32,000 bases of DNA from Alkalilimnicola ehrlichii MLHE-1 (GCF_000014785.1 NC_008340.1:3060001-3092000), one strand, 5' to 3'; positions 5,578 to 25,333 are shown, counted from the stretch's first letter. Translations and numbers: made by a program. Notes: generated by a model from the letters alone, not told the origin.

Positions 5578-8500
5578 TCAATCGTCCTCGCCCATGGCGA
5601 ACAGACTGGCGTTGCCACCGGCGGCAGCAGTGTTGACGGTCACGACCCGCTCGGCGGCGAAACGCAGCAGGTAGTGCGGCCCACCAGCCTTGAAACCGGT
5701 GCCCGACAGGCCCTCGCCACCAAAGGGCTGGCTACCCACTACCGCCCCCACCATGTCGCGGTTGACGTAGGCATTGCCCACCCGGGCGCGGTTCACCACC
5801 GCGGCGGCGGTCTCGTCCACCCTGCTGTGCACTCCCAGAGTCAGGCCGTAGCCCAGGCCGTTGATCCGGTCCACCAGCGCATCCAGCTCGCCGGCCCGCC
5901 AGGTCACCCAATGCAACAGCGGCCCGAAATGCTCCCGGCCCAACTGGTCGATACGGTCGAGACGGTAGAGGGCAGGGGCAACGAAGCTGCCCCGCTCACA
6001 CTCCGGTCGCAGCGGGGCCTGGTGCAGCAGGCGCCCCGCACTGACCATCCGCTCATGGTGGGCCAGCAGGCCATCCCGGGCGGCCGGGTCGATAACCGGT
6101 CCCACGTCGGTGGCCAGCCAGTGGGGATCGCCGACGGTGAGGGCGTCCATGGCCCCCTTGAGCATCGCCAGCAGGTCATCGGCAATATCCTCCTGCACGC
6201 AGAGCAGGCGCAGGGCCGAACACCGCTGGCCGGCGCTGTGGAAGGCCGAGCGAATGATGTCCACCACCACCTGCTCGGGCAGCGCACTGGAGTCCACCAC
6301 CATGGCGTTGAGCCCGCCGGTCTCGGCGATCAACGGCACAATGGGGCCCTCACGCTGCGCCAGCCCCTGCTGGATACGCCGTGCGGTGTCGGTGCCCCCG
6401 GTGAAGGCCACGCCGGAGATGCGGGGGTCCGCGACCAGGTGCGGGCCGATCTCGCCGCCGTCGCCGGGCAGCAGGTGCAGGGCAGTCTCGGGGATACCGG
6501 CCCGATGCATCAACGCCACCGCCTGATGGGCGATCAGGCTGGCCTGTTCCGCCGGCTTGGCGACCACCGTGTTGCCCGCGGCCAGGGCGGCGGTGACCTG
6601 GCCGGTGAAGATCGCCAACGGGAAGTTCCAGGGACTGATGCAGAGGAAGGTCCCGCGCGGGTGGAGGCGCAGTTCGTTACGCTCGCCGGTGGGGCCGGGC
6701 AGCACGGTGGCCTGCCCGAACAGGCGACGGGCCTGGTGCGCGTAGTAACGGCAGAAGTCGGCCGCCTCACGCACCTCGGCAATGCCGTCCTTCAGCCCCT
6801 TGCCCGCCTCCCGGGTGCACAGGGCCATCAGTTCGGCGCCATGCGCCTCGTAGAGTTCGGCGATCTGCTCCAGGGCCCGGGCGCGGGTCTCGGCCCGGGT
6901 ATTGGCCCAGGTCTCCCGACCGGCCACGGCCGCCTCCAGGGCGTGTTCCACGTCGGCATGCTCGGACCAGACCACTCGGCCCACCTGGCGCTCACGGTCC
7001 GCGGGGCAGTGCACCGCCTCACCCGCGCCCGCCTTGACCTGGCCGTCGATCAGCGGCGCGGCCCGCCAGGCATGTTCGCTGGCGGCCTCCATGGCCTCGG
7101 CCAGCCAGACCATCTCGTGGCGGTCGGAGAAATCCAACCCGATGCTGTTCAGACGCTGTTCGCCGTAGAGGTCCCGGGGCAGCGGGATGCGCGGGTGGCG
7201 CAGACTCTCGCGGGCGCGCAGGCTGGACGCCGGGTCAGCGACCAGGGCCTCCACGTCGCCCTCGTGGATACGGTTGACGAAGGAGGAGTTGGCGCCGTTC
7301 TCCAGCAGGCGCCGGACCAGGTAGGCGAGCAGTTCCTCGTGACTGCCCACCGGGGCGTAGATGCGGCAGGGGATATCCGGCCCGCCAGCGCGTCCCAGCA
7401 ACTGCTCGTAGAGCGCCTCGCCCATCCCGTGCAGCCGCTGAAACTCGTAGGGCTGGCGGCCGGCCAGTTCCATGACTGCCGCGACGGTATGGGCGTTGTG
7501 GGTGGCGAATTGCGGGTAGAGGTGCGGGCACTCGCTGAGCAGGCGCCGGGCGCAGGCCAGATAGGCGACGTCGGTGGCCGCCTTGCGGGTGAAGACCGGG
7601 TAGTCCCTCAGGCCCTGGACCTGGGTCTCCTTGATCTCTGTGTCCCAATAGGCGCCCTTGACCAGGCGCACCATCAGCGCGCGGTTTTGCCTGGCCGCCT
7701 GCGCCTCGAGCCAGCCTACCAGGGCATAGCAGCGCTTCTGGTAGGCCTGGATCGCCAGGCCGAAGCCCTCCCAGTCCGCCAGCCCCGGCTCGGCAAGCAC
7801 CGCCTCAATCACATCCAGCGACAGGTCCAGGCGCCAGGACTCCTCGGCATCCACACAGAGGGCGATGTTGTAGTCGCGGGCCAGTTCGCAGAGCTGCAAC
7901 AGCCGGGGCAGGACCGTGCCCATCACCCGTGCCTCCTGACCCGGCTCGTAGCGCGGATCCAGGGCGGAGAGCTTCACCGAGACCCCGGCCCGGTCGCGGA
8001 TGCGGGCCTGCGGGTCCACTGCCTTGCCGACCCGGTGGATGGCGTTGCGGTAGGCCTCGAAGTAGGCCTGGGCGTCGGCGTCGGTGCGGGCGGCCTCGCC
8101 CAACATGTCGTAGGAGTAGCGGTAGCCCTTGCGCTCGTTGGGGTGGGCCCGTTTCAGCGCCTCATCGATATCCCGCCCCAGGACGAAGGTGTCGGCCAGC
8201 AGGCCCATGGCCCGGCGCACCGCGGTGCGGATGACCGGTTCGCCCGCGCGCGCCACCATGTGGTGCAGGACCCCGCCCAGCCAGCGGTCGCGGTCATCGG
8301 TATCGATGATCCGCTCGGTGAGCAGCAGGCCCCAGGTGGCGGCATTGACGAACAGCGGCCGGTCCCGCCCCAGGTGGGTCTCCCAATGCGAGGCGGTCAG
8401 CTTGTCGTGGATGAGCTTGTCCGCGGTGTAGCGGTCGGGCACTCGCAGCAGGGCCTCGGCCAGACACATGAGCACGATGCCCTCCTCGCTGGAGAGGTCG

Positions 8501-11914: not shown

Positions 11915-13105
11915 TCAGAGCCTCTCCAATGCCAGGGCGATCCCCTGACCTCCGCCAATACACAAGGTCACGATGCCGCGATGCCCCCCATCACGATGCA
12001 TGGCGTGCAGGAGTCGGGTCGTGAGTACCGCACCGGTGGCGCCAATGGGGTGTCCATGGGCGATGGCGCCCCCCTCGACATTAACCACATCCTCGCTGAG
12101 CCCCAGCTCTCGCAGGCAGGCCAGGGCAATGGCGGCAAAGGCCTCGTTAATCTCCACCCGATCCACGTCCCCAATCGCCCAGCCGGCCCGATCCAGGGCC
12201 TGTCTGACCGCAGGCACCGGGCCGATGCCGAAATAACCCGGCTCCACCGCGCCGACGCCAAAGGCCACCAACCGGGCCATCGGCACGACGCCCGCGGCCT
12301 CGGCCCAGGCCCGATCAGCGACCACCATCGCGGCCGCTCCGCTGTTGAGGCCGGGGGCGTTGCCGGCCGTGATAGTCCCCCCTTCGCGGAAGGCCGGTTT
12401 CATGCGCGCGAGCGATTCGGCGGTTACATCACCCCGGTTGTGCTCATCCCGCTCGAACGGTACAACGCCCTTGCGGGCATTGACCTCCACGGGGGTGATT
12501 TCCCCGTCGAAACGACCCGCCGCCTGGGCCTCGGAAAACCGCTGTTGCGAGCGGGCCGCCCAGCGATCCTGATCCTCCCGGGAGACACCGTAGCGACTGA
12601 CCAGATCCTCGGTGTGCCAACCGGAATGCTTGCCGCTGAACGCATCATTCAATCCGTCCGTCAGCATGCTGTCGAACAGCTTCGCGTCGCCCATCCGGGC
12701 ACCCCAGCGACCCTGCGGCATCAGATAGGGCGCCATGTCCATGTTCTCCATGCCCCCGGCGATGGCACAGTCCGTCATGCCGCTCCAGATCTCCATGGCG
12801 GCACTGGCGATGGCCTGAGCCCCGGAGCCGCAGACGCGGTTCACCGTGAGTGCCGGCACCTCCACCGGGAGACCTGCGTGTATGCCCACCTGCCGGGCCG
12901 GATTCATCCGGTTGCCGGCCTGGATAACGTTGCCCATCACCACGGACTGGACTTTTTCCGGCGCCAAACCGGTCCGGGAGAGGACGCTCCGCACGGCACA
13001 GGCCCCGAGCTCTGTGGCAGGCGTGTTCTTGAGCGTGCCCCCGTAGGTGCCGATCGCGGTACGGACGGGGGCGCAGAGCACAACCTCGCGCTGAGTCATA
13101 GCCAT
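11915..13105 (-). CDS. Acetyl-CoA C-acetyltransferase (biosynthetic thiolase)
   Basis: 396 aa. Thiolase signatures are present: VNRVCGSGAQAI (active-site Cys), NEAFAA, GGAIAHGHPIGATGA and LCIGGGQGIAL. The start could be ATG 13105 or ATG 13099 (MTQREVV), because the GAGG box is 3 or 9 nt upstream respectively. It is phaA/atoB-like, but no phaB or phaC is adjacent. Confidence 0.93.
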   Translation of the reverse strand: MAMTQREVVLCAPVRTAIGTYGGTLKNTPATELGACAVRSVLSRTGLAPEKVQSVVMGNVIQAGNRMNPARQVGIHAGLPVEVPALTVNRVCGSGAQAIASAAMEIWSGMTDCAIAGGMENMDMAPYLMPQGRWGARMGDAKLFDSMLTDGLNDAFSGKHSGWHTEDLVSRYGVSREDQDRWAARSQQRFSEAQAAGRFDGEITPVEVNARKGVVPFERDEHNRGDVTAESLARMKPAFREGGTITAGNAPGLNSGAAAMVVADRAWAEAAGVVPMARLVAFGVGAVEPGYFGIGPVPAVRQALDRAGWAIGDVDRVEINEAFAAIALACLRELGLSEDVVNVEGGAIAHGHPIGATGAVLTTRLLHAMHRDGGHRGIVTLCIGGGQGIALALERL

Positions 13106-13234
13106 TTACCTCGCTAGTGAAAACCGCACAAGAATAGGGTAATCGCACGATACCGCCAGCGCGCCCGAAACGACGTAAATCCGCGGTTCCGGGAAGCGCT
13201 TACCACCGGCCCTCAAACCGTTTACCAAGCCTGG

Positions 13235-14074
13235 TCAGCTCGCGGAAGTGGGACGCGCCGGCACCAAGAGCACGAGCTGGTGGCTATTACGGCAGACCGC
13301 CTCGGCGGTGCTCCCCAGCAGGAGTTCAGTTAACGGGTTGTGGCCGCGCCGCCCGAGCACCACCAAGTCCGCCTGCTGTTCCCTGGCCACCTGGCTGATC
13401 ACCTGGCTGGGCTTGCCACGCCCTACCAATACCGTCTGGAAGGTGTCCGCGCCTGCTTGATCGAGAAGGCCCCGGATATGCTGCTCGATCCGTACCCGTT
13501 CGCCATCCTCATCCTTGCGATCATCCCACCGGCCGACGGAGACCACGACCCCCCGACCACAATGGGGCAGCAGCTTGAGAAAGGCCGCCTCGGCGCCGGA
13601 GGCCGCCTCGGAGCCATCGGTGGCCAGTAGCGGCCGGCAGATACCGCCCGAAGGCAGGGACGCCTCGCCATTGATCGGCACCAGCAACAGAGGCCGGTCG
13701 GCCAGACGCGCAAGGTTCAGCACCGTATTGCCAAGGAGCAGTTCGTGGACAAAACCGTGCCCCTGGCTGCCGGCCAGGATGGTGCCCGCCTGGCAGGCCT
13801 CGGCGGCGGCGATCAGCTCCTGGGCCACGGCGCCGACCCGGATCGTCCAGTCCACGTCCAGCCCGGTGGCCTGTTTCAGTGCCTTCGCCGCCTCGGCCAG
13901 CTTTTCCTCGTAATAGGCCCGATGACCCAGCTCCGGGGCCTGGGTATACCCCTCGGCCATCACGTAGGCCAGGGTCACGCGCCGGCAGCCCAGCGCCGGC
14001 AGGCGGGCCAGTTGGGCCTCCAGTTGCGACCAGGCCGGTGAGAAGTCGATGGCGGCCAGTATATGCTTCAGCAT
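13235..14074 (-). CDS. Universal stress protein, tandem UspA-domain type
   Basis: 279 aa with two Usp modules. The first runs ILAAIDFS...ILAGSQGHGFVHELLLGNTVLNLARLADRPLLLVP. The second runs LLATDGS...DLVVLGRRGHNPLTELLLGSTAEAVCRNSHQLVLLVP. GGAGAAAGG precedes the ATG. It lies 30 nt downstream of the CC-motif ORF on the same strand, so it may be the last gene of the ars transcript. Confidence 0.85.
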   Translation of the reverse strand: MLKHILAAIDFSPAWSQLEAQLARLPALGCRRVTLAYVMAEGYTQAPELGHRAYYEEKLAEAAKALKQATGLDVDWTIRVGAVAQELIAAAEACQAGTILAGSQGHGFVHELLLGNTVLNLARLADRPLLLVPINGEASLPSGGICRPLLATDGSEAASGAEAAFLKLLPHCGRGVVVSVGRWDDRKDEDGERVRIEQHIRGLLDQAGADTFQTVLVGRGKPSQVISQVAREQQADLVVLGRRGHNPLTELLLGSTAEAVCRNSHQLVLLVPARPTSAS

Positions 14075-14104
14075 GTCCTTTCTCCGTTGGCTGAATCGCC
14101 AGAA

Positions 14105-14425
14105 TCATTGCCCTTCGGTTTTCGTGTGCCCCGCGGGGCGCCAGGGGCTGACGGCGCCCTCCACCACCAGGCGTTTCCAGCGCCAGAACCCTTCCACATC
14201 CACCCGGTAGGGGCCTTCGGAGAGCGCCCGGGCCAGGTAGACGGTGACGCCCTCCAGCGACAGGGCCTGGTAGTCCTCGCGGGCCTCCGGCACCCGGACC
14301 TCGGCCCGGGGCACGGCTGCGTGGCCGCCGCAGCAGCCATGTTGGGGGGCGGCACGCACAGTCAGTACGCCCCCCTGGGCCAGCACCCATGCCCGCGCCG
14401 CCGGGGTCAGGATGACCGGGGTCAT
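14105..14425 (-). CDS. Uncharacterised 106-aa protein with vicinal-cysteine HGCCGG motif, translationally coupled to acr3
   Basis: Its ATG (14425-14423) overlaps the acr3 stop codon in an ATGA junction (14422-14425). The CC codons are at 14330-14335. The N-terminal layout (ILTPAARAWV..GGVLTVR....GCCGG) is reminiscent of IscA/HesB-type scaffolds, but the C-terminal CxC is absent. From memory it resembles small proteins annotated 'CC/Se motif family (seleno)protein'; this is unverified. Confidence 0.7.
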   Translation of the reverse strand: MTPVILTPAARAWVLAQGGVLTVRAAPQHGCCGGHAAVPRAEVRVPEAREDYQALSLEGVTVYLARALSEGPYRVDVEGFWRWKRLVVEGAVSPWRPAGHTKTEGQ

Positions 14426-15537
14426 GCCTTGCCCGAGGCGGGGGCCAGCCCCGGCTGCGTCTCTTCCGGGAACCAGTGCTTGGTTTTATTGGCGATGCGG
14501 ACCAGCGCCAGCATCAGCGGTACCTCCACCAGCACGCCCACCACGGTGGCCAGCGCCGCCCCCGATTGCAGGCCGAACAGGGCGATGGCCGCGGCCACGG
14601 CCAGCTCGAAGAAGTTGCTGGCGCCAATCATGGCCCCGGGTGCCGCCACCGAGTGCTGCACCTTCCACGCCTTCGCCCAACGATAGGCAATGAAGAAGAT
14701 CAGGAAGGTCTGGATGATCAGCGGGATCGCGATCAACAGAATGTGCAGCGGGTTGTTCAGGATCACCTCGCCTTGGAAGGCGAACAGCAGGATCAGGGTG
14801 AGGATCAGCCCGATGGGCGTCACCGGCGCCAGGCGCTTCATGAAGACGTTGTCGAACCACTCCACGCCCTTGTGTTTGATGAGCATCACGCGGGTCAGGT
14901 AGCCGGCAGCCAGCGGGATGACGATGTACAGGAACACCGACAACGCCACGGTATCCCACGGCACCTGGATGTCAGAGATGCCCAGCAGCAGCACCACGAT
15001 GGGGGCAAAGGCGAACAGCATGATCAGGTCGTTCACCGAGACCTGCACCAGGGTGTAGGCGGCATCGCCCCGGGTGAGGTAGCTCCAGACGAAGACCATG
15101 GCGGTGCAGGGGGCCGCGCCCAGCAGGATGGCCCCGGCCAGGTACTCCCGGGCCAGGTCCTCCGGGATGAAGGGCTGGAAGACCACCATCAGGAAGAACC
15201 AGGCGATGGCGAACATGGTGAAAGGCTTGATCAGCCAGTTCACAGTGGTGGTGATCACCAGCCCCTTGGGCTGCCGGCGCACACCGAGGATGGCACCGAA
15301 GTCGATCTGCACCATCATCGGGTAGATCATGGCCCAGATCAGGATGGCGACGGGGATGGAGACCTGGGCGTACTCGAAGCGTGCAAGGGTATCCGGCACC
15401 ACCGGCAGAAACTGCCCCAGCAGCACGCCGGCGATCATGCCCAGCGCCACCCAAAGGGTGAGGTAGCGCTCGAACAAGCCCATACCCTCCTTGGTGGAGG
15501 GGGTGTCATTGGCGGCGGTCGGCTGCGAATCACTCAT
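14422..15537 (-). CDS. acr3: Arsenite efflux transporter, ACR3 family
   Basis: 371 aa. GLFERYLTLWVALGMIAGVLLG...GAAPCTAMVFVWS... is the canonical ACR3 sequence, including the conserved Cys in GAAPC. The ATG overlaps the arsA stop (ATGA at 15534-15537). Confidence 0.94.
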   Translation of the reverse strand: MSDSQPTAANDTPSTKEGMGLFERYLTLWVALGMIAGVLLGQFLPVVPDTLARFEYAQVSIPVAILIWAMIYPMMVQIDFGAILGVRRQPKGLVITTTVNWLIKPFTMFAIAWFFLMVVFQPFIPEDLAREYLAGAILLGAAPCTAMVFVWSYLTRGDAAYTLVQVSVNDLIMLFAFAPIVVLLLGISDIQVPWDTVALSVFLYIVIPLAAGYLTRVMLIKHKGVEWFDNVFMKRLAPVTPIGLILTLILLFAFQGEVILNNPLHILLIAIPLIIQTFLIFFIAYRWAKAWKVQHSVAAPGAMIGASNFFELAVAAAIALFGLQSGAALATVVGVLVEVPLMLALVRIANKTKHWFPEETQPGLAPASGKA

Positions 15538-17249
15538 GAGTAGTCTTCGCTCCAGGGTTCAATAATCAGTCGGCTGTGATGTTCGCTCACGATCTCGCGC
15601 AGCCAGCGGGCCTCCTGCGCCTGGCGGGCGCGCAGCACCGGGTCGGTCACCGCCAGCGGGGTCAGCGACTGGTTGACAATCCAGGCCGCCGGCTCGATCT
15701 CCGCCCGGCGCAGGTCCGCCTGCAGAGCTGCCGCCTCGTGCACGGGCGTGGCCTCCGGCAGGGTGCAGATCAACATGTGGGTGTAGTGGGGGTCACGCAG
15801 CCGGGGCAGCAACTGCTCCACCTCCGGCGCCACCTCCTGGCTCTGCCGGCCCAGCTCGCGGTGATAGGCCTGGGCGGCATCCAGCAGCAGGATGGTGTGG
15901 CCGGTGGGGGCGGTGTCCAGCACCACGATCTCGTCCTCGGCCCGGGCCACGGTACGGGCGAAGGCCTGGAAGACGGCGATCTCCTCGGTACAGGGCGAAC
16001 GCAGGTCCTCCTCCAGCAGCTTGCGCCCCTCCTCGTCCATGTCGGCGCCGGCGGTGGCCATGACGTGCTCGCGGTAGCGCTCGGTCTCGGCCTTGGGGTC
16101 CACCCGGCCGACCGTCAGCCCGGTGGGCAGCTCGCCGCCCACGGCAGCGGCCACGTGGGCCGCCGGGTCGGTGGTGGTCAGGTGAACACTGTGCCCGCGG
16201 GAGGCGAGCGCCACGGCGATCCGGGCCGCCAGGGTAGTCTTGCCCACCCCGCCCTTGCCCAGGGTCATGACCGCACCGCGGCCGTCGCGCTCCAGGCTGT
16301 CAATGAGTTGCTCGAAGGACTCGCCCTCGGGTGCGTCCTCCGCCGGCTGTTCGGGAATGTCGGGGGCCTGCTCGCCCAGCAGGATGCGCAGGCCGTCCAG
16401 GCCCATGGGCGCGTGCGCCCGCAGTGGCCGCTCGCTGCGCGGCAGCTCCGCCAGCCCGGCGGGCATGGCCTCGAGGGCGCGCTGGCCCCGCGCCTCCAGG
16501 GCCCGGGCCACCGGGTCGTCGGCGTCGGTGGCGCGAAAGACGCCGTTGACCACCAGATGCTGGTTTTTCACACCGAGGTCGCGCAGTTCTTCGCTGGTGC
16601 GGGCGGCCTCGTCCAGCGCGGCCCCCTCCGGCCGGCTGACCAGCACCAGGGTGGTGCGGTCGGCCTCCGCCAGCGCCTCCACCGCGCCGGCATAGACGTC
16701 CTTCTGGGCGGACAGCCCTTCCAGCGGGCCCAGGCAGGAGGTGCCGGAGGTGTTGGTCTCGATGTACCCGCTCCAAGCGCTGGGCAGGGAGAGCAGCCGC
16801 AGGGTGTGACCGGTGGGGGCGGTGTCGAACACCAGGTGGTCGTAGCCCTCGGCGGCGCGGGGGTCGCCCAGCAGGCCGGCGAAGGCGTCGAAGGCGGCGA
16901 TCTCGACGGTGCAGGCACCAGAAAGCTGCTCTTCCATGCTCCGCACGATGGCGTCCGGGAGCTGACCACGGTAAGGACCGACGACGCGCTCGCGGTACTC
17001 CTCGGCAGCCTTTTCCGGATCGATGTTGAGTGCATGGAGGTTGTCCACGCCATTGACCGGGCGCGGAGTACCGGTCAGGTCGGTCTCCAGCACCTCGTCG
17101 ATGTTGGAGGCCGGGTCGGTGGAGACCAGCAGGACACGCTTGCCCCGCTCCGCTAGGGCCAGCGCCGTGGCGCAGGCGAGGGAGGTCTTACCGACACCGC
17201 CCTTTCCGGTGAAAAAGAGATTGCGCGTGGCGTTTTCCAGAAATTGCAT
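15534..17249 (-). CDS. arsA: Arsenite-stimulated efflux ATPase ArsA (two-domain)
   Basis: 571 aa. The deviant Walker A is duplicated: GKGGVGKTS at the N-terminus and GKGGVGKTT in the second half. The signal-transduction motif DTAPTGHT occurs twice. Three metalloid-site cysteines are in the expected contexts (SGACTVEIAAFDAF, SGTSCLGPLEG, RSPCTEEIAVFQAF). Confidence 0.96.
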   Translation of the reverse strand: MQFLENATRNLFFTGKGGVGKTSLACATALALAERGKRVLLVSTDPASNIDEVLETDLTGTPRPVNGVDNLHALNIDPEKAAEEYRERVVGPYRGQLPDAIVRSMEEQLSGACTVEIAAFDAFAGLLGDPRAAEGYDHLVFDTAPTGHTLRLLSLPSAWSGYIETNTSGTSCLGPLEGLSAQKDVYAGAVEALAEADRTTLVLVSRPEGAALDEAARTSEELRDLGVKNQHLVVNGVFRATDADDPVARALEARGQRALEAMPAGLAELPRSERPLRAHAPMGLDGLRILLGEQAPDIPEQPAEDAPEGESFEQLIDSLERDGRGAVMTLGKGGVGKTTLAARIAVALASRGHSVHLTTTDPAAHVAAAVGGELPTGLTVGRVDPKAETERYREHVMATAGADMDEEGRKLLEEDLRSPCTEEIAVFQAFARTVARAEDEIVVLDTAPTGHTILLLDAAQAYHRELGRQSQEVAPEVEQLLPRLRDPHYTHMLICTLPEATPVHEAAALQADLRRAEIEPAAWIVNQSLTPLAVTDPVLRARQAQEARWLREIVSEHHSRLIIEPWSEDYS

Positions 17250-17357
17250 GGCCTGCCTTTGACGTTGATGGTTGATGGCGGATGGTTGAACCGATGGGCC
17301 CAGAGGTGCCTTTAGCGGTCGAATGCACGCCGGCTTCCATCAGGGGCTGTCATGCTG

Positions 17358-17735
17358 TCAACAGCAGCCGGAGCCCGGTGACTGATCGTTGCCACCACAG
17401 CCGCCAGCGGACTCGGTGTCAGCCGATTCGGCCTTGATGCCAACCCAGGCGGCCAGCGCCTGGCGATCCGGGTAGCTGCCCTGGCTCATCACCTCGCCGT
17501 CCACCAGGAAGACCGGCAGGGCGTCCTCGCCCCGGCGCTGGAGGATGTCCTTAACGGTCGCGTTCTCGACGAAGGCGCCGGGTTGTTGCGAGAGGTTGTA
17601 GCGGATGACGGACACCCCCTGTTTTTTCACCCAGTCCAGGTCGGCGGCCAGCTTCGAGAGCTTGGGATCGACACTCGGGCCACAGACACCCGTGGAACAG
17701 CACTGCGGCGGGTCGAAAACAGTCAGTTCGGTCAT
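17358..17735 (-). CDS. arsD: Arsenic metallochaperone / weak trans-acting repressor ArsD
   Basis: 125 aa. MTELTVFDPPQCCSTGVCGPSVD carries the Cys12-Cys13-Cys18 As(III) site. The C-terminus carries further Cys (GGCGG...GSGCC). AGAGGTG precedes the ATG. Confidence 0.93.
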   Translation of the reverse strand: MTELTVFDPPQCCSTGVCGPSVDPKLSKLAADLDWVKKQGVSVIRYNLSQQPGAFVENATVKDILQRRGEDALPVFLVDGEVMSQGSYPDRQALAAWVGIKAESADTESAGGCGGNDQSPGSGCC

Positions 17736-17809
17736 GTCAAAACACCTCTGCTACGAATGGATAAAACGCGAACCGCGACGCGCGCCTGACGACGCCCGCT
17801 CCGGGCGGT

Positions 17810-18232
17810 TCACTTCAGCGCGGCCACCAGATCAGCAACACGGCGCTTGATGTCATCCCGCACCGTCCGGAACTCCGCCATGATCTCATCCTCGGTGCCC
17901 CGGGCCTTCGCCGGATCGGGCAATGGCCAGTGGTGCTTCTCGATACCCACGGGCACCACCGGGCAGTGCTCGTCGGCATGCCCGCAGACGGTCACCAGCA
18001 CGTCGGCCCGGGCCAGCATCTCGTCGGTCAGGCGCGTGGAGGCCTGCTCGGCGATATCCACGCCGTCTTCGGCCATGACCGCGATGGCGCGCGGATTCTT
18101 GCCGTGGGCCTCGATGCCGGCGGACAGCACCTCCAGGTCGTCGTCTGCCATCGCGCGGGCATAGCCCTCGGCCATTTGCGAACGACAGGAGTTGCCGGTA
18201 CAGAGAAACAGCAGGGTCTTACGCTCGGGCAT
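17810..18232 (-). CDS. arsC: Arsenate reductase, LMW-PTPase fold, thioredoxin-coupled type
   Basis: 140 aa. LFLCTGNSCRSQMAEGY is the CX5R P-loop. VCGHADEHCP supplies the Cys82/Cys89-equivalent pair of the pI258-type ArsC. GAGG precedes the ATG. Confidence 0.92.
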   Translation of the reverse strand: MPERKTLLFLCTGNSCRSQMAEGYARAMADDDLEVLSAGIEAHGKNPRAIAVMAEDGVDIAEQASTRLTDEMLARADVLVTVCGHADEHCPVVPVGIEKHHWPLPDPAKARGTEDEIMAEFRTVRDDIKRRVADLVAALK

Positions 18233-18250
18233 GGTTGACCTCGAAGTTTG

Positions 18251-18595
18251 TCATGAAAGCGATGGCCGGTTGGGCATCCCGCCGAGACGCTGTTGCGCCG
18301 CCTTCCAAGGCACGCCGGTGCCCTCGCCGACGGCCTCGATAACCCGACGCACCCAGTCCGGCAGGCCATCCGCCAACCGATAATGGACCCACTGTCCCCG
18401 CCGCTCATCGGTCACCAGCCCGGCATCGCGCAATTGCGCCAGATGGCGCGAGATCTTGGGCTGGGAGACCTCCAGCGCATGGGTCAGCTCACAGACGCAC
18501 AACCGGCCCTCCGCGCGCAGTAGCAGCACGCTGCGCAGCCGGGTGGAATCCGACAGGAGGCGGAACAGTTTTTCAGGGGCTATGCTCATGGGCAT
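18251..18595 (-). CDS. arsR: ArsR/SmtB-family As(III)-responsive repressor
   Basis: Only the C-terminal ~112-114 aa of the 307-aa track ORF is ArsR-like: (MP)MSIAPEKLFRLLSDSTRLRSVLLLRAEGRLCVCELTHALEVSQPKISRHLAQLRDAGLV. It includes the CVC metalloid-binding motif and the wHTH. The start is ambiguous, with in-frame ATGs at 18589, 18595, 18607 and 18613. The remainder of the track ORF is antisense to the flavin reductase gene. Confidence 0.88.
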   Translation of the reverse strand: MPMSIAPEKLFRLLSDSTRLRSVLLLRAEGRLCVCELTHALEVSQPKISRHLAQLRDAGLVTDERRGQWVHYRLADGLPDWVRRVIEAVGEGTGVPWKAAQQRLGGMPNRPSLS

Positions 18596-18609
18596 GAATA
18601 TACGCATCT

Positions 18610-18621
18610 CCATATATCTGG
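18610..18621. promoter_or_regulatory. Candidate ArsR operator (imperfect palindrome) in the arsR / flavin-reductase divergent region
   Basis: CCATATATCTGG matches its own reverse complement at 10 of 12 positions. It is an AT-rich core in a GC-rich region immediately upstream of the arsR start codons. ArsR operators are AT-rich dyads overlapping the promoter. The assignment rests on position and symmetry only. Confidence 0.3.
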
Positions 18622-18718
18622 TCAAGCGGATGGCACCCCCTTCATGGGGCGCTTCACCATCCAGGCCACGATGCCAAAATACCCTGGTGAGCTTGACCCT
18701 GCCAGTAACGGAGCCCCT

Positions 18719-19390
18719 ATGAAAACACTGATCTTTGTCGGCACGTCCCGTCAGAGCACCCCACCCAGGCCGCCCCGGCTGGGTCTGCGGGTCGCCAGGG
18801 CCTGCCTGGCCTACTTCAATGAATGGCTTCCGGACCATCAGGTAGAGCTGGTCGACCCGCTGGACCTGACATTCGGTGCCGTGTTCAAGCCGCACTTCGC
18901 CTATGCGAGCCAGCAGGCCCCGGATCAGCTCCGCGCCCTCGCGGAACAGATCGAGGCGGCCGACAGCTATGTCATGGTCAGTCCGGAATACAATCACTCC
19001 ATGAGCCCGGTACTCGCCCACCTGCTGAACCATTTCGGGAGTTCGCTCTTCTCCTACAAACCCAGCGCGATCGTCACCTACTCCGCCGGACAATGGGGCG
19101 GGGCCCGGGCCGCGGTGGCGATGCGGACATTTCTCTCCGAGTTGGGCTGTCTCCCGGTCTCCGCAATGATCCACATCCCCAAGGCGCAGACGGTGCTGGC
19201 CGAGGACGGCTCATTTCTAGAAGGGGCCGACGACGAGGAATGGACGGGCTACATGGGCAGAACGCTGCAACAACTGAACTGGTGGGCGGCCGCCGCGCGG
19301 GCGCACCGGCAGCAGGCTGACCCGTTCGACCGGGCTCAAGCGTTCCAGCGCGACCCATCGCAACGGAACGCGCCGAAACCGCCGGAGTGA
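18719..19390 (+). CDS. NAD(P)H-dependent FMN reductase family protein (flavodoxin-like fold; not canonical ArsH)
   Basis: Start is taken at ATG 18719 (GGAG 5 nt upstream), giving 223 aa. MKTLIFVGTSR...ADSYVMVSPEYNHSMSPVLAHLLNH... matches the FMN_red family signature. It is divergently transcribed from arsR. Confidence 0.85.
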   Translation: MKTLIFVGTSRQSTPPRPPRLGLRVARACLAYFNEWLPDHQVELVDPLDLTFGAVFKPHFAYASQQAPDQLRALAEQIEAADSYVMVSPEYNHSMSPVLAHLLNHFGSSLFSYKPSAIVTYSAGQWGGARAAVAMRTFLSELGCLPVSAMIHIPKAQTVLAEDGSFLEGADDEEWTGYMGRTLQQLNWWAAAARAHRQQADPFDRAQAFQRDPSQRNAPKPPE

Positions 19391-19497
19391 CGCGGGGATT
19401 GACGGTCAGACCTGCCTGGATGCGGGTCTGGGCCCTCCCCGTGCAGTGCAGAACGCAGTCGCTTGAAAGGACAGGGAGGCCTGCCAACGGAGTGAAA

Positions 19498-20466
19498 ATG
19501 AGCCACGCGATCAAGGTAGAAGGGTTGGTGCGAGACTTTGGCGGCACCCGCGCACTGGATGGTGTGAGCCTGAGCGTGCCGACCGGCCAGGTGCTGGGCC
19601 TGCTGGGACCGAACGGCGCCGGCAAGACCACCATTGTCCGGACCCTGGCCACGCTGTTGGCCCCCACGGCGGGACAGGCGTGGGTCGGCGGCTTCGACGT
19701 CGTCCGCGAGCCCGCCCGGGTGCGCGAGATCATCGGGCTGACCGGCCAGTATGCGTCGGTGGACGAGAAGCTGACCGGTCGCGAGAACCTGATCCTGGTC
19801 GGCCGCCTGCTGGGACTGAAACGCGCGGAGGCGAAGGCGCGTGCGGATGCGCTGCTCGCGGATTTCTCCCTGGAAGAGGCCGCCCGGCGACCCGCCCAGA
19901 CCTATTCGGGCGGCATGCGCCGACGCCTGGACCTGGCCGCCAGCCTGGTCGGACGTCCCCGCATCCTGTTCCTGGACGAGCCCTCCACGGGGCTGGACCC
20001 GCGGGCACGGCGCGACCTGTGGCAGCGCATCCGCCAGCTACAGGCCGGCGGGACCACCGTGCTGCTGACCACCCAGTATCTCGAGGAGGCGGATGCCCTC
20101 GCCGACCTCATCGTGGTGCTGGACCAGGGCCGGGTGATCGCCGAAGGCACCTCCGCCCAGCTCAAGTCGCGGGTCGGTGCGCGCACCCTCTACGTGACCG
20201 TTTCCGACCCGGCCCTGGCCCCACGCACCGCGGAACGGGTGACCGCGGTCACGGGCGCGCAGGCGCAGGTGGACGGCGAACAGATCAGTGCACCGGTGCA
20301 GGACCCGGGGCTGCTGCCGGCGGTGTTGCGGGCCCTGGACCAGGCGGGCATCGAGGTCGCCGAGCTGGGCCTGCGCGGGGCGAGCCTGGACGACGTCTTC
20401 CTCGCCCTGACCGGCCACAGCGGCCAATCCGGGCCCAATGAAAATGCAGCGGAGGACGCTCCATGA
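19498..20466 (+). CDS. ABC transporter ATP-binding protein, DrrA/ABC-2 exporter type
   Basis: Start at ATG 19498 (ACGGAG upstream), giving 322 aa. Walker A is GPNGAGKTT, the signature is YSGGMRRRLDLA, and Walker B is ILFLDEPSTGLD. The C-terminal ~100 aa extension is typical of DrrA-like proteins. Confidence 0.9.
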   Translation: MSHAIKVEGLVRDFGGTRALDGVSLSVPTGQVLGLLGPNGAGKTTIVRTLATLLAPTAGQAWVGGFDVVREPARVREIIGLTGQYASVDEKLTGRENLILVGRLLGLKRAEAKARADALLADFSLEEAARRPAQTYSGGMRRRLDLAASLVGRPRILFLDEPSTGLDPRARRDLWQRIRQLQAGGTTVLLTTQYLEEADALADLIVVLDQGRVIAEGTSAQLKSRVGARTLYVTVSDPALAPRTAERVTAVTGAQAQVDGEQISAPVQDPGLLPAVLRALDQAGIEVAELGLRGASLDDVFLALTGHSGQSGPNENAAEDAP

Positions 20467-21227
20467 GCGGTCTGCAGCAGACACTCACGCTGGCCTGGCG
20501 CAGCCTGGTGCAGGTGCGGCGCAACCCCTGGGAGCTGGGTGACTACAGCATCCAGCCGATCCTCTTCCTGGTGCTGTTTCTGTACGTCTTCGGCGGGGCG
20601 ATCGCCGGCTCGCCGGACGACTACCTGGCATTCGTGCTGCCGGGGGTAATCGTGATGAACATGCTGTTCGTCACGGTCTATGTGGGCCATGGACTGAACA
20701 CCGACCTGACCAAGGGCGTGTTTGACCGCTTCCGCGCCCTGCCGATCCCGCGTTGGGCGCCGCTGGCCGGCCGCATCCTCGCGGACGTGGTCAAGCAGGC
20801 GCTTTGCATCGCGCTGCTGCTGGTCGTGGGCTACCTGCTCGGATTCCGTCTGGCCACCTCCGTGGTGCACCTGCTGGGCATGATCCTGCTGGTGCTGGTC
20901 TTCGCCGTCGCCTTCTCCTGGGTGATGGTGCTGGTGGGCGTGATGGCGCGGGACCCAGAGCACGTGCAGTTGTTCGGCTTCACGGCGCTGTTCCCGGTGA
21001 CCTTCGTCAGCTCCGCCTTCGTACCGGTGGAGACCATGCCCGAGTGGCTGCAGGGCTTCGTGTACGCCAACCCCGTATCCCTGCTCGCAGACGCCGCACG
21101 CGCATTGATGAACGGCGGTCCGGCCGCCGCCCCGGCGTCGTGGTCCCTGCTCTGGGCCCTGGGCATCGCGCTGGTGTTCGCGCCGCTATCCGTCTACGCC
21201 CTCAACCGTCGCCTGGCGCGTGGCTGA
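20463..21227 (+). CDS. ABC-2 type transporter permease (DrrB-like)
   Basis: 254 aa with six predicted TM helices. The ATG overlaps the stop of the ATPase gene (ATGA at 20463-20466), the standard coupling for DrrAB-like pairs. Confidence 0.86.
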   Translation: MSGLQQTLTLAWRSLVQVRRNPWELGDYSIQPILFLVLFLYVFGGAIAGSPDDYLAFVLPGVIVMNMLFVTVYVGHGLNTDLTKGVFDRFRALPIPRWAPLAGRILADVVKQALCIALLLVVGYLLGFRLATSVVHLLGMILLVLVFAVAFSWVMVLVGVMARDPEHVQLFGFTALFPVTFVSSAFVPVETMPEWLQGFVYANPVSLLADAARALMNGGPAAAPASWSLLWALGIALVFAPLSVYALNRRLARG

Positions 21228-22947: not shown

Positions 22948-24441
22948 ATGAACTGGAAGAGACTGAAACAAGAGTGGTTCGGCAACATCCGCGGGGATGT
23001 GCTGGCCGGCATCATCGTGGCCCTGGCGCTGATTCCCGAGGCCATTGCCTTCTCCATCATCGCCGGCGTGGACCCGCAGGTGGGGCTGTACGCCTCCTTC
23101 TGTATCGCGGTGGTCATCGCTTTCACCGGCGCGCGGCCGGGGATGATCTCTGCGGCCACCGCCGCCATGGCGCTGCTGATGATCACCCTGGTGGCGGACC
23201 ACGGCCTGGAGTACCTGCTGGCCGCCACGCTACTCACTGGCGTGCTGCAGGTCATCGCCGGCTACCTGCAGGTCGGCCGGGTGATGCGCTTTATCTCCAA
23301 CTCGGTGATGACCGGCTTCGTCAACGCCCTGGCCATCCTGATCTTCATGGCGCAGATCCCGGAGTTGGTGGACGTGCCCTGGCTGGTCTACCCCATGGTG
23401 GCCGGCGGGCTGGCCATTATCTACCTGCTGCCCTACCTCACCCGTGCCATCCCCTCGCCGCTGGTCACCATTGTGGTGCTTACCCTGCTGGCCTGGGCGC
23501 TGGGCATGAACGTGCCCACGGTGGGGGATATGGGCGACTTGCCCGATACCCTGCCGGTGTTCCTGTGGCCGGACGTGCCGCTCAACCTGGAGACCCTCTG
23601 GATCATTCTGCCCTACTCGCTGGCACTGACAGTGGTCGGGCTACTGGAGTCCATGATGACCCAGAGCATCGTGGACGACCTGACCGACAGCAAGACCGAC
23701 CGCAACCGCGAGTGCCGCGGCCAAGGCATCTCCAACCTGGTGGCCGGCAGCTTCGGCGGCATGGCCGGCTGCGCCATGATCGGGCAGTCCATCATCAACG
23801 TGAAATCGGGCGGTCGCGGCCGGCTGTCCTCCCTGGTGGCCGGGCTGGTGCTGATCGTGCTGGTGGTCTTCCTCTCGCCCCTGCTCAAGATGATCCCCAT
23901 GGCGGCGCTGGTGGCGGTGATGATCATGGTGGCCATCGGCACCTTCAGCTGGGGCTCCATCCGCGACCTGCGCAAAAACCCCATGAGCACCAACATCGTC
24001 ATGGTCAGCACCGTGGCGGTCACGGTCATCACCCACAACCTGGCCATCGGGGTGCTCACCGGGGTGCTGTTGGCGGGGCTGTTCTTCGCCAACAAGGTCA
24101 GCCAGTTCATGCACGTCAGCTCCGACGTGGACGAGCACCCGGACGACCAGACCCTGCAGCGCACCTACCGCGTCGTGGGCCAGGTCTTCTTCGCCTCCAC
24201 CGAAAAGTTCATGAACACCTTTGATTTCGGCGAGGATCTGGATAAGGTGACCATTGATCTCACCCGCGCCCACTTCTGGGATATCAGTTCCGTGGCGGCG
24301 CTGGACCGGGTGGTCATCAACTTCCGCCGTGAGGGCACCGAGGTAGAGATCGTGGGCATGAACGAGGCCACGGCCACCATCGTCGACCGCCATGCCGTGC
24401 ACGACAAGCCGGACGCCATTGACCGGCTGATGGGCCATTGA
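22948..24441 (+). CDS. SulP-family anion transporter with C-terminal STAS domain
   Basis: Start at ATG 22948 ([41 protein letters not shown]), giving 497 aa. This is the canonical SulP N-terminal motif, followed by a polytopic core and then a STAS domain ([12 protein letters not shown]...[21 protein letters not shown]). Confidence 0.92.
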
Positions 24442-24478: not shown

Positions 24479-25333
24479 ATGACTGAAAAGGTATTCGCCT
24501 GTGTGGACGGCTCGCGCTCGTCCGAGTCCGTCTGTGACCACGCCGCCTGGGCCTGCCAGCGCCTGGGCGCCCCGCTGACCCTGCTGCATGTCATCCGCAA
24601 TCCCCACGGGGAACGCGAGCCCGACTACAGCGGCAACCTGAGCCTGGGCAACCGGGAAGAACTGCTCCAGGAGTTGGTGGAGTTGGAGGAGAAGCGCGGC
24701 AAGCTGGCCCGGGAGCAGGGCAAGGCGGTGCTGGCCGACGCCATCGCGCGGGTCGAGGCGGCCGGGGTGGAAAACCCGGGCCGTCTGCTGCGCAACGGGG
24801 ACATCACCGAGGCGTTGGCCGCTTTGGAGGAGGACATGCGCCTGCTGGTGCTGGGCAAGCAGGGCAAGGATGGCGACGTGGTCACCCGGCATATCGGCAG
24901 CCACCTGGAGAACATCATCCGCACCCTGCACAAGCCCATGCTGGTGGTGCCGCTGCAATTCCGCACCCCGGAGCGCTTCCTGATCGCCTATGACGGCAGC
25001 CCCACGGCCGACAAGGTGGTGGACCGACTGGCCCGAAGCAGCCTGCTGGACGGGCTGGAGGCCCATATCCTGATGGTGGGTGCGGAGACCGACGCCAACC
25101 GCGAGAAACTGGAGGCGCCCCGGGCCCGGCTGCAGAAAGAGGGCTTCCAGGTGACCACGGCGGTGAAATCGGGCGAGGTGAACGAGGTGGTCTGTGACTA
25201 TCGCGAGGCCAACGACATCCACCTAATGGCGATGGGTGCTTACGGCCACTCGCGGCTGCGCCAGTTCTTCGTGGGCAGCACCACCACCCACATGATCATG
25301 CGCTCGCCGATCCCGCTGTTGATACTGCGCTGA
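24479..25333 (+). CDS. Universal stress protein, tandem UspA-domain type
   Basis: 284 aa with two Usp modules: VFACVDGS...LLVLGKQGKDGDVVTRHIGSHLENIIRTLHKPMLVVP, and FLIAYDGS...HLMAMGAYGHSRLRQFFVGSTTTHMIMRSPIPLLILR. It starts 37 nt downstream of SulP and is probably co-transcribed with it. Confidence 0.88.
   Translation: MTEKVFACVDGSRSSESVCDHAAWACQRLGAPLTLLHVIRNPHGEREPDYSGNLSLGNREELLQELVELEEKRGKLAREQGKAVLADAIARVEAAGVENPGRLLRNGDITEALAALEEDMRLLVLGKQGKDGDVVTRHIGSHLENIIRTLHKPMLVVPLQFRTPERFLIAYDGSPTADKVVDRLARSSLLDGLEAHILMVGAETDANREKLEAPRARLQKEGFQVTTAVKSGEVNEVVCDYREANDIHLMAMGAYGHSRLRQFFVGSTTTHMIMRSPIPLLILR

Follow-up and report, generated by a model that had tools for sequence, protein, structure and literature searches.

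The enzymes ArsI, ArsJ, ArsN, ArsV and ArsZ were found by asking after unnamed neighbours in arsenic-resistance (ars) operons. Here we describe one such neighbour, an NAD(P)H-dependent flavin mononucleotide (FMN) oxidoreductase gene (18719-19390, + strand; Mlg_2714 by position) that lies divergently from the ars operon of Alkalilimnicola ehrlichii MLHE-1, in a 32,000-nucleotide stretch of this genome (GCF_000014785.1 NC_008340.1:3060001-3092000), hereafter the window, from whose first letter all positions are counted. We consider it likely that the MLHE-1 ars island is composed of three parts: an ArsR-repressed operon, an FMN reductase that is a recurrent companion of ars genes, and an unrelated exporter cassette.

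The ars cluster of MLHE-1 has been published as Mlg_2707 (uspA) to Mlg_2713 (arsR), in the order uspA, hypothetical, ACR3, arsA, arsD, arsC2, arsR (Ahn et al. 2019, PMC6620896), and our literature search found no paper mentioning Mlg_2714-2716. For the reductase, a described counterpart comes from Halomonas sp. GFAJ-1, in which arsH1-acr3-2-arsH2 form a cotranscribed operon. ArsH1 and ArsH2 were both described as FMN reductases, sharing little identity with each other, and in E. coli AW3110, acr3-2 together with either arsH1 or arsH2 gave resistance (Wu et al. 2018, PMC5930303). This study defined neither a family nor an activity. The GFAJ-1 ArsH2 and the MLHE-1 reductase are alike in that both are predicted NADPH-dependent FMN reductases with little identity to canonical ArsH, both are encoded at an ars operon with acr3, and both organisms originate from Mono Lake; they differ in that arsH2 follows acr3 within its operon, whereas the MLHE-1 gene is divergent from arsR.

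Results

An FMN_red subfamily distinct from ArsH

The reductase matches PF03358 (93.2 bits against a cut-off of 24), and its start at 18719 was set by homologues, an upstream ATG at 18644 being discounted. Its product shows 100% identity to the annotated NADPH-dependent FMN reductase of MLHE-1, whose chromosome has the entire gene order. Its orthologues are 60-74% identical across distant genera, and the motifs G-x-x-R-x-S, SPEYNHS and YSAGQWGG are invariant over 20 aligned orthologues. We read these three motifs as putative flavin-binding loops; SPEYN-type and SAGxxG stretches align with PA1204 and YhdA. A private C-terminal extension of the reductase ends in a further invariant motif with the consensus DPSQRNAP, so that the family signature comprises an N-terminal F-x-G-x-x-R-x-S-x-P-P, SPEYNHS, YSAGQWGG and this C-terminal consensus. 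At each of the columns invariant among the 20 aligned sequences, the MLHE-1 protein has the family residue. NCBIfam has no model for the subfamily, and its members carry the PGAP name 'NAD(P)H-dependent oxidoreductase'.

When searched against the PDB (E<=0.01), the family profile found PA1204, YhdA and ChrR/YieF, with a best E of about 1e-12, and no ArsH entry. The fold predicted by AlphaFold (predicted local distance difference test, pLDDT, 71; predicted template modelling score, pTM, 0.73) matched YhdA best in Foldseek, and also ChrR and SsuE; against ArsH structures, the template modelling (TM) score was about 0.6 at 12-18% identity. The ArsH model TIGR02690 (cut-off 292 bits) gave no match to the reductase at a threshold as lax as E<=10; in the same search, an authentic ArsH from Halomonas gemina (locus L084), serving as control, scored 402 bits. 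An earlier note on this DNA, made from the sequence alone, had remarked that the reductase is not ArsH-like, and this is borne out by the lack of a TIGR02690 match and by a BLASTP identity to the H. gemina ArsH of 25% over 116 residues.

The reductase and ArsH have in common the flavodoxin-like FMN_red fold, a similar size (about 220-240 amino acids) and residence in ars operons. Unlike ArsH, the reductase lacks the N-terminal extension and the motifs YGSLRxRSxSR and SPERHG, possesses its own C-terminal WW-helix along with the invariant DPSQRNAP-consensus motif, and belongs to a subfamily that frequently co-occurs with arsH. The class I quinone, azo and chromate reductases (P. aeruginosa PA1204, 1RTT; B. 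subtilis YhdA; E. coli YieF/ChrR; Paracoccus FerB) are the best PDB matches and share the SPEYN flavin-binding loop, yet their identity is about 20-23%, they are about 170-195 amino acids long, without the conserved 40-50-residue C-terminal extension, and to our knowledge they are not ars-operon genes. Likewise, we know of no description of ArsZ or ArsU as FMN_red proteins. Two further candidates were set aside: ArsW, first considered as an FMN reductase, is given in the literature as an efflux permease, and the 'NQD' of the Thioalkalivibrio paper is a different gene, an NAD(P)H:quinone oxidoreductase beside a glutaredoxin-type arsC. Judged by its sequence, the reductase is a member of a very conserved, unnamed FMN_red subfamily, and is not ArsH.

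Recurrent linkage to arsenic-resistance genes

We surveyed the best 80 of more than 580 genome matches, the best 80 metagenome loci and 4 plasmid copies of the reductase (loci are given L numbers where they need telling apart), and scored Acr3, ArsB, ArsA, ArsD, ArsH and ArsJ as strict ars markers within 5 kb of each orthologue. By this measure, 12/80 genome loci and 13/80 metagenome loci were ars-linked, as were 18 of the 87 loci whose flanks reach 3 kb or more on each side, and all four plasmid-borne reductases lay in or near ars clusters. Clustered at 80% identity, the reductases fall into 45 lineages, 13 of which, in Alpha-, Beta- and Gammaproteobacteria, contain ars-linked members (binomial P of about 1e-13 to 2e-7 under assumed background rates of 1.5-5%). 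This frequency is far above any plausible background. With 13 lineages and four of four plasmids, the comparative test proposed in the earlier note, namely whether the reductase is linked to ars operons elsewhere, came out positive.

The arrangements themselves are diverse. On the Gemmobacter plasmid the order is arsR-arsC-acr3-arsH-reductase, with a 4-bp arsH/reductase overlap; the Janthinobacterium plasmid carries arsRCCBCH-reductase-arsN1; on the Moraxella plasmid the reductase adjoins ynfA-arsR and arsBCCHC; and on the Acuticoccus plasmid it resides within a mer/ars island. Idiomarina presents arsCR-acr3-gapdh-arsJ-reductase with a 4-bp arsJ overlap, and in Chromohalobacter the reductase starts 32 bp after arsB. 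In L151 it comes about 70 bp downstream of acr3, and in L135 and L153 it precedes acr3 by 90-115 bp. Other orders include reductase-arsR-arsC-acr3-CC/Se, reductase-acr3-CC/Se, acr3-reductase and arsC-arsH-acr3-USP-reductase, where CC/Se stands for a small protein with a Cys-Cys motif and USP for a universal stress protein, both of which recur in the MLHE-1 operon. There are at least 10 different gene orders, nearly all co-oriented with short gaps, and stop and start codons frequently overlap; the linkage has therefore either arisen repeatedly or survived much rearrangement.

An explanation that dispenses with arsenic altogether is that the reductase is a housekeeping NAD(P)H:quinone/flavin reductase whose adjacency to the operon is fortuitous. 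Consistent with this, about 80% of the orthologue loci have no ars neighbours (e.g., in Nitrosomonas, Marinomonas and Vibrio, the Nitrosomonas neighbours being housekeeping genes), the nearest relatives of known structure are quinone, azo and chromate reductases of a generic kind, and the MLHE-1 gene, divergent from the operon, is not obviously under the arsR operator. Such an explanation sits poorly with 13 ars-linked lineages, four ars-linked plasmids and a multitude of gene orders in which codons are often shared with ars genes, and we regard it as distinctly unlikely.

Three further arrangements were observed in the course of the survey. On two Nitrosomonas-like contigs, on which no other ars genes were seen, an ArsD-like open reading frame (ORF) 50% identical to the ArsD of the window lies directly upstream of the reductase (about 8-265 in L034 and about 6595-6915 in L108). 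In a second Idiomarina arrangement (L048, L076), the gene for a 402-amino-acid major facilitator superfamily (MFS) transporter other than ArsJ occupies the roughly 1.2 kb upstream of the reductase and stops 3 bp short of its start; here arsCR-acr3-gapdh-arsJ come after the reductase. Finally, Chromohalobacter sarecensis (L179, 5677-13645) carries arsB-reductase, a divergent arsR, a gene for a second FMN_red protein of 236 amino acids, which is probably ArsH, and arsC, gapdh, an arsJ-like MFS gene and SulP. This compact island would make a good genetically tractable system for the reductase.

Relation to ArsH and to Halomonas GFAJ-1 ArsH2

A true arsH occurs in the same cluster as the reductase in at least nine architectures (L084, L125, L146, L168, L169, L174-L177 and L179). 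Because it is so often found beside true arsH, the reductase is probably no stand-in for ArsH, and the idea that it substitutes for this enzyme was not upheld.

In order to place the GFAJ-1 proteins, we translated the primers used for their genes. From the arsH1 primers we obtained LLTDRYS and VRERSD, both belonging to the C-terminus of canonical ArsH. For arsH2, one stretch reads FLGSTRTSTP and another, which spans the joint of the in-frame deletion, reads HKAEQD. FLGSTRTSTP agrees with the reductase family at five out of six invariant N-terminal positions (F, G, R, S and the first P), the primer sequence stopping one codon short of the second invariant P, and HKAEQD fits the R-x-x-x-D-P region of the family. 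On these roughly 17 primer-encoded residues, ArsH2 of GFAJ-1 very probably belongs to the reductase family. Neither STRTSTP nor HKAEQD was present in any fetched protein, the primers had no close match in the fetched loci, and a protein search with the L169 reductase, whose N-terminus is the most similar, returned Marinobacter-like proteins with GFAJ-1 not among them. The earlier note had spoken of an undescribed module; in this respect the link between reductase and ars genes turns out to be partly known, as 'arsH2' appears to be a member, and the description holds only in part.

These comparisons also bear on whether the reductase does the work of ArsH as an NADPH/FMN-dependent oxidase of trivalent organoarsenicals such as MAs(III) and Rox(III), an idea that corresponds to the enzymatic part of the module proposed in the earlier note. 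The two proteins have the same superfamily fold, as far as the predicted structure tells, and both reside in ars operons. Moreover, the Janthinobacterium reductase is flanked by two organoarsenical genes, arsH and arsN1, and the resistance obtained in E. coli with acr3-2 and either arsH gene suggests overlapping function. On the other side, the presence of true arsH in the same clusters argues for a distinct role, the reductase failed completely against the ArsH model, and in Idiomarina it is coupled to gapdh-arsJ, an arsenate pathway. We thus find an ArsH-like activity somewhat unlikely.

The neighbouring ABC exporter

The reductase is followed on the same strand by a gene for a DrrA-family ATP-binding cassette (ABC) ATPase (19498-20466, +; TIGR01188, 343.7 bits against a cut-off of 312.45) and by that of its partner, an ABC-2 permease (20463-21227, +; PF01061, ABC2_membrane, 112 bits). 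The permease is below the DrrB cut-offs (72.3 against 223 for TIGR01247 and 93 against 146.9 for TIGR00025). As in daunorubicin-type DrrAB exporters, the ATPase passes TIGR01188 and bears a DrrA-type C-terminal domain, the permease is of the ABC2_membrane type, and the genes overlap; unlike them, cassettes of the window type, which are found in haloalkaliphilic Gammaproteobacteria and Micromonospora, are free of antibiotic clusters, and of ars genes as well.

The exporter was initially described as following the reductase on the same strand. It does so, but not seamlessly: the two are separated by a 107-nt gap containing a strong G+C-rich hairpin (19391-19443, +), which begins directly 3' of the reductase stop codon and is unique in the window. 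The 116-nt region spanning the gap (19385-19500) has a minimum free energy of -50.2 kcal/mol (z = -2.99), a value equalled by 1 of 200 shuffles. The hairpin has no U-tract and was not called as an intrinsic terminator; it may be a transcript end, a stabiliser or a processing site between reductase and drrA.

The earlier note had gone further and proposed that the reductase and the exporter form one ArsR-controlled module, which would modify and export an organoarsenical or antimonial. Their shared strand and short separation, the lack of a canonical intrinsic terminator between them and the ars linkage of the reductase family itself are all compatible with this proposal. However, a close DrrA/DrrB was found beside the reductase at 0 of 164 reductase loci, which makes the pairing unique to MLHE-1, and the stable hairpin (z = -3) stands right after the reductase stop codon. 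Permease orthologues 73-93% identical occur in Thioalkalivibrio, Halorhodospira, Halovibrio, Halospina and Natronospira, and in five DrrAB contexts examined (73-89% identity; Thioalkalivibrio, Halorhodospira, Halovibrio and a second Alkalilimnicola) we found no ars genes and no reductase. In all five, DrrAB is a self-contained two-gene cassette, with neighbours such as MscL/GGDEF, PhaC, TonB receptor/HAD and Sod_Cu. The orthologues in Thioalkalivibrio jannaschii, recognised by the synteny DUF3817-ABM-...-MscL-DrrA-permease-GGDEF-...-TetR, did not respond to arsenite, in contrast to the ars cluster, which rises: their log2 fold changes at 0.1 mM As(III) were 0.0007 and -0.03, and the genes listed as induced at 5 mM do not include them. 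An alignment of drrA upstream regions from six genomes, made to look for a promoter carried with the cassette, displayed no conservation.

The surroundings of the reductase in Idiomarina offer a further clue. There, the reductase is directly followed by a SulP-USP pair, and the same pair, composed of a SulP/STAS anion transporter gene (22948-24441, +) and, directly after it, a second tandem USP gene (24479-25333, +), lies 3.5 kb downstream in the window, DrrAB and two small ORFs coming in between. Because SulP-USP directly follows the reductase in Idiomarina, the DrrAB cassette looks inserted in MLHE-1. In light of these observations, we consider a joint reductase-exporter module highly improbable, and judge the exporter to be an independent two-gene cassette that is adjacent by chance and is not part of the ars system.

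Two side observations concern these neighbours. Relatives of the permease that are 72-74% identical occur in Micromonospora (Actinomycetota), a sign that the cassette was recently passed from one phylum to another. The SulP pair (64-71% identical for SulP) is also found beside the reductase or an ars island in Idiomarina, on the Moraxella plasmid and in Chromohalobacter. We considered SulP-USP as an ars-specific module and dismissed it, as SulP relatives are found on 1756 plasmid records and the pair on P. putida pTTS12 is without ars genes; it looks like a widespread mobile pair, and presumably resembles the sup-uspA pair of Acinetobacter AbaR islands.

The divergent control region

The arsR and reductase genes are separated by a divergent intergenic region of 123 bp (18596-18718). 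It contains a promoter-like site for arsR on the - strand, with a -35 box TTGACC (18620-18625), a 17-nt spacer and a -10 box TATATT (18597-18602); with 10/12 matches, it was the sole consensus promoter in the 3.6 kb scanned. An AT-rich imperfect dyad, ATATACGCATCTCCATATAT (18598-18617), extends from the -10 box through the promoter spacer. The dyad was recognised by eye and by comparison with L085, an Ectothiorhodospiraceae metagenome-assembled genome (MAG), in which arsR is immediately preceded by a similar motif; a search of the intergenic spacer for inverted repeats with exact seeds found none.

The -10 box abuts the first ATG of arsR (18595), and a second in-frame ATG lies at 18589, so the arsR mRNA may be leaderless or translated from the second ATG. 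In a gammaproteobacterial MAG from Salar de Ascotan (L086), four tandem copies of GATTAACTATGGA are located just upstream of arsR (5790-5860), and may constitute an operator array.

The arsenic operon and its accessory genes

All genes named in the earlier note were recovered, by ORF listing and profile searches, and every gene product except the ABC-2 permease passed curated family cut-offs. On the - strand, arsR (18251-18595, Mlg_2713; NF007528, 112.6 bits against 97) encodes a repressor with a CVC metalloid-binding motif (in the sequence LCVCEL), and is followed by the genes for a thioredoxin-type ArsC arsenate reductase (17810-18232, Mlg_2712; TIGR02691, 183.5 against 174.3), the metallochaperone ArsD (17358-17735, Mlg_2711; NF033727, 128.7 against 90, and PF06953), the pump-driving ATPase ArsA (15534-17249, Mlg_2710; TIGR04291, 787.5 against 650) and the arsenite efflux permease ACR3 (14422-15537, Mlg_2709; TIGR00832, 408 against 283). 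Next come the CC/Se-motif small protein (14105-14425, Mlg_2708, published as 'hypothetical'; NF041239, 83.4 against 40) and, as the final gene of the operon, the tandem USP (13235-14074, uspA, Mlg_2707), which has two Pfam Usp stretches. Family assignments above the curated NCBIfam cut-offs, co-orientation and tight spacing make this a canonical arsRCDA plus acr3 operon. Overlaps of 4 bp join arsA to acr3 and acr3 to CC/Se, and the USP gene starts 30 nt past the CC/Se stop codon; this spacing, the gene positions and the shared spacer of about 120 bp (in fact 123 bp) were all as first described.

The functions of the core genes are established. In MLHE-1 they would be expressed as a single ArsR-repressed operon together with the two accessory proteins: ArsC would reduce arsenate, and ArsD would pass As(III) to ArsA for export via ACR3. 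The CC/Se protein would be translationally coupled to acr3, with the tandem USP as the second accessory, and the roles of these two proteins we infer from their settings and motifs.

The pairing of acr3 with CC/Se is seen in five or more lineages besides MLHE-1. A CC/Se gene lies directly 3' of acr3 in L040, L085 and L109, in H. gemina (L084) and Halomonas sp. PA16-9 (L178), and in three related metagenome contigs (L135, L139 and L145). Across these loci the CC/Se proteins are only 33-49% identical, and Acr3 is near 80%. All CC/Se members tested passed NF041239, and HGCCGG is invariant in four acr3-linked members. A USP gene follows acr3 or arsC in L084, L013/L086 and L169. In Tv. jannaschii, 5 mM As(III) strongly induced uspA (b = 2.37), Hp1 (log2 fold change 2.75) and ACR3 (b = 1.58), and this ACR3-Hp1-uspA set is equivalent to acr3-CC/Se-uspA of MLHE-1. 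The recurrent acr3-CC/Se pairing and the arsenite induction of the Tv. jannaschii equivalents agree with the initial proposal that the CC-motif ORF and the USP belong to the ars operon, an extension that is already known for MLHE-1.

Like ArsD, the CC/Se protein is small and cytosolic, has a vicinal Cys-Cys pair and is encoded adjacent to arsenite pump components; unlike ArsD, it belongs to NF041239, a family with some selenoprotein members. We detected no sequence relationship between the CC/Se protein and ArsD, a Pfam search with it gave no match, and its profile drew chance matches only among PDB sequences. A HesB/IscA-like pattern was considered and found unsupported, the single-sequence AlphaFold model being too poor (pLDDT 49) and the profile search fruitless. 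By analogy, the CC/Se protein probably binds As(III) near ACR3 through its vicinal cysteines.

The order acr3-CC/Se-USP-thiolase (window 11915-15537) is common to MLHE-1 and H. gemina (L084), with Acr3 84% and the thiolase 78% identical. This shared block suggests either exchange between Ectothiorhodospiraceae and Halomonadaceae, or that the thiolase belongs to the unit.

Discussion

The association of the reductase with ars genes is a matter of observation, and from it we infer a mechanism. In the course of evolution, this FMN reductase subfamily has come to lie in ars operons again and again, beside acr3, arsB, arsJ or arsH, where the enzyme would most likely be an accessory flavoenzyme of detoxification, active alongside ArsH. 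As for its activity, we prefer an NAD(P)H-driven two-electron reduction of quinones or of oxidants arising under arsenic stress; oxidation of trivalent organoarsenicals would be less likely. A bolder proposal, which we advance tentatively and hold to be possible without counting on it, is that the subfamily is a genuine, still unnamed arsenic-resistance determinant with a biochemical role distinct from that of ArsH, given that in many operons it stands beside arsH and that, depending on the lineage, it is translationally coupled to arsJ, arsB, acr3 or arsH. Under this proposal the enzyme might be a redox partner in tolerance by efflux, at which the arsH-dependence of Acr3-2 in GFAJ-1 hints.

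Several points weigh against the reductase being a companion of the ars system in MLHE-1. The many orthologue loci devoid of ars neighbours mean that the family may be a general housekeeping one, recruited to ars only at times, and in MLHE-1 the gene is divergent from the operon, not inside it. The sole operator-like dyad is on the arsR side of the spacer, some 100 bp away from where the reductase gene begins, and the promoter scan of 3.6 kb recognised no + strand consensus promoter for the reductase; in L085, too, the operator-like motif lies between reductase and arsR, which leaves the reductase upstream of the regulated promoter. With regard to GFAJ-1, deletion of arsH2 was without an As(V) phenotype (PMC5930303), and the family membership of ArsH2 is deduced from three primer-encoded peptides. 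The need for an arsH beside acr3-2 in E. coli could be an artefact of construct expression, and because the constructs differ in the upstream DNA that they carry, the functional evidence from GFAJ-1 is weak. Reductase activity, moreover, is a prediction from sequence for every member of the family. Lastly, as the hairpin is without a U-tract, co-transcription of reductase and drrAB is possible.

For annotation, the analysis averts a false lead, in that the ABC exporter should not be labelled arsenic-related. The sole experimental examination of the reductase family was in Halomonas GFAJ-1, under the label 'arsH2', and assaying the reductase could help to explain the odd finding made there of an acr3 that needs an FMN reductase. 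More broadly, one unnamed flavoprotein family emerges as a recurrent component of ars operons, on chromosomes and plasmids and in three proteobacterial classes.

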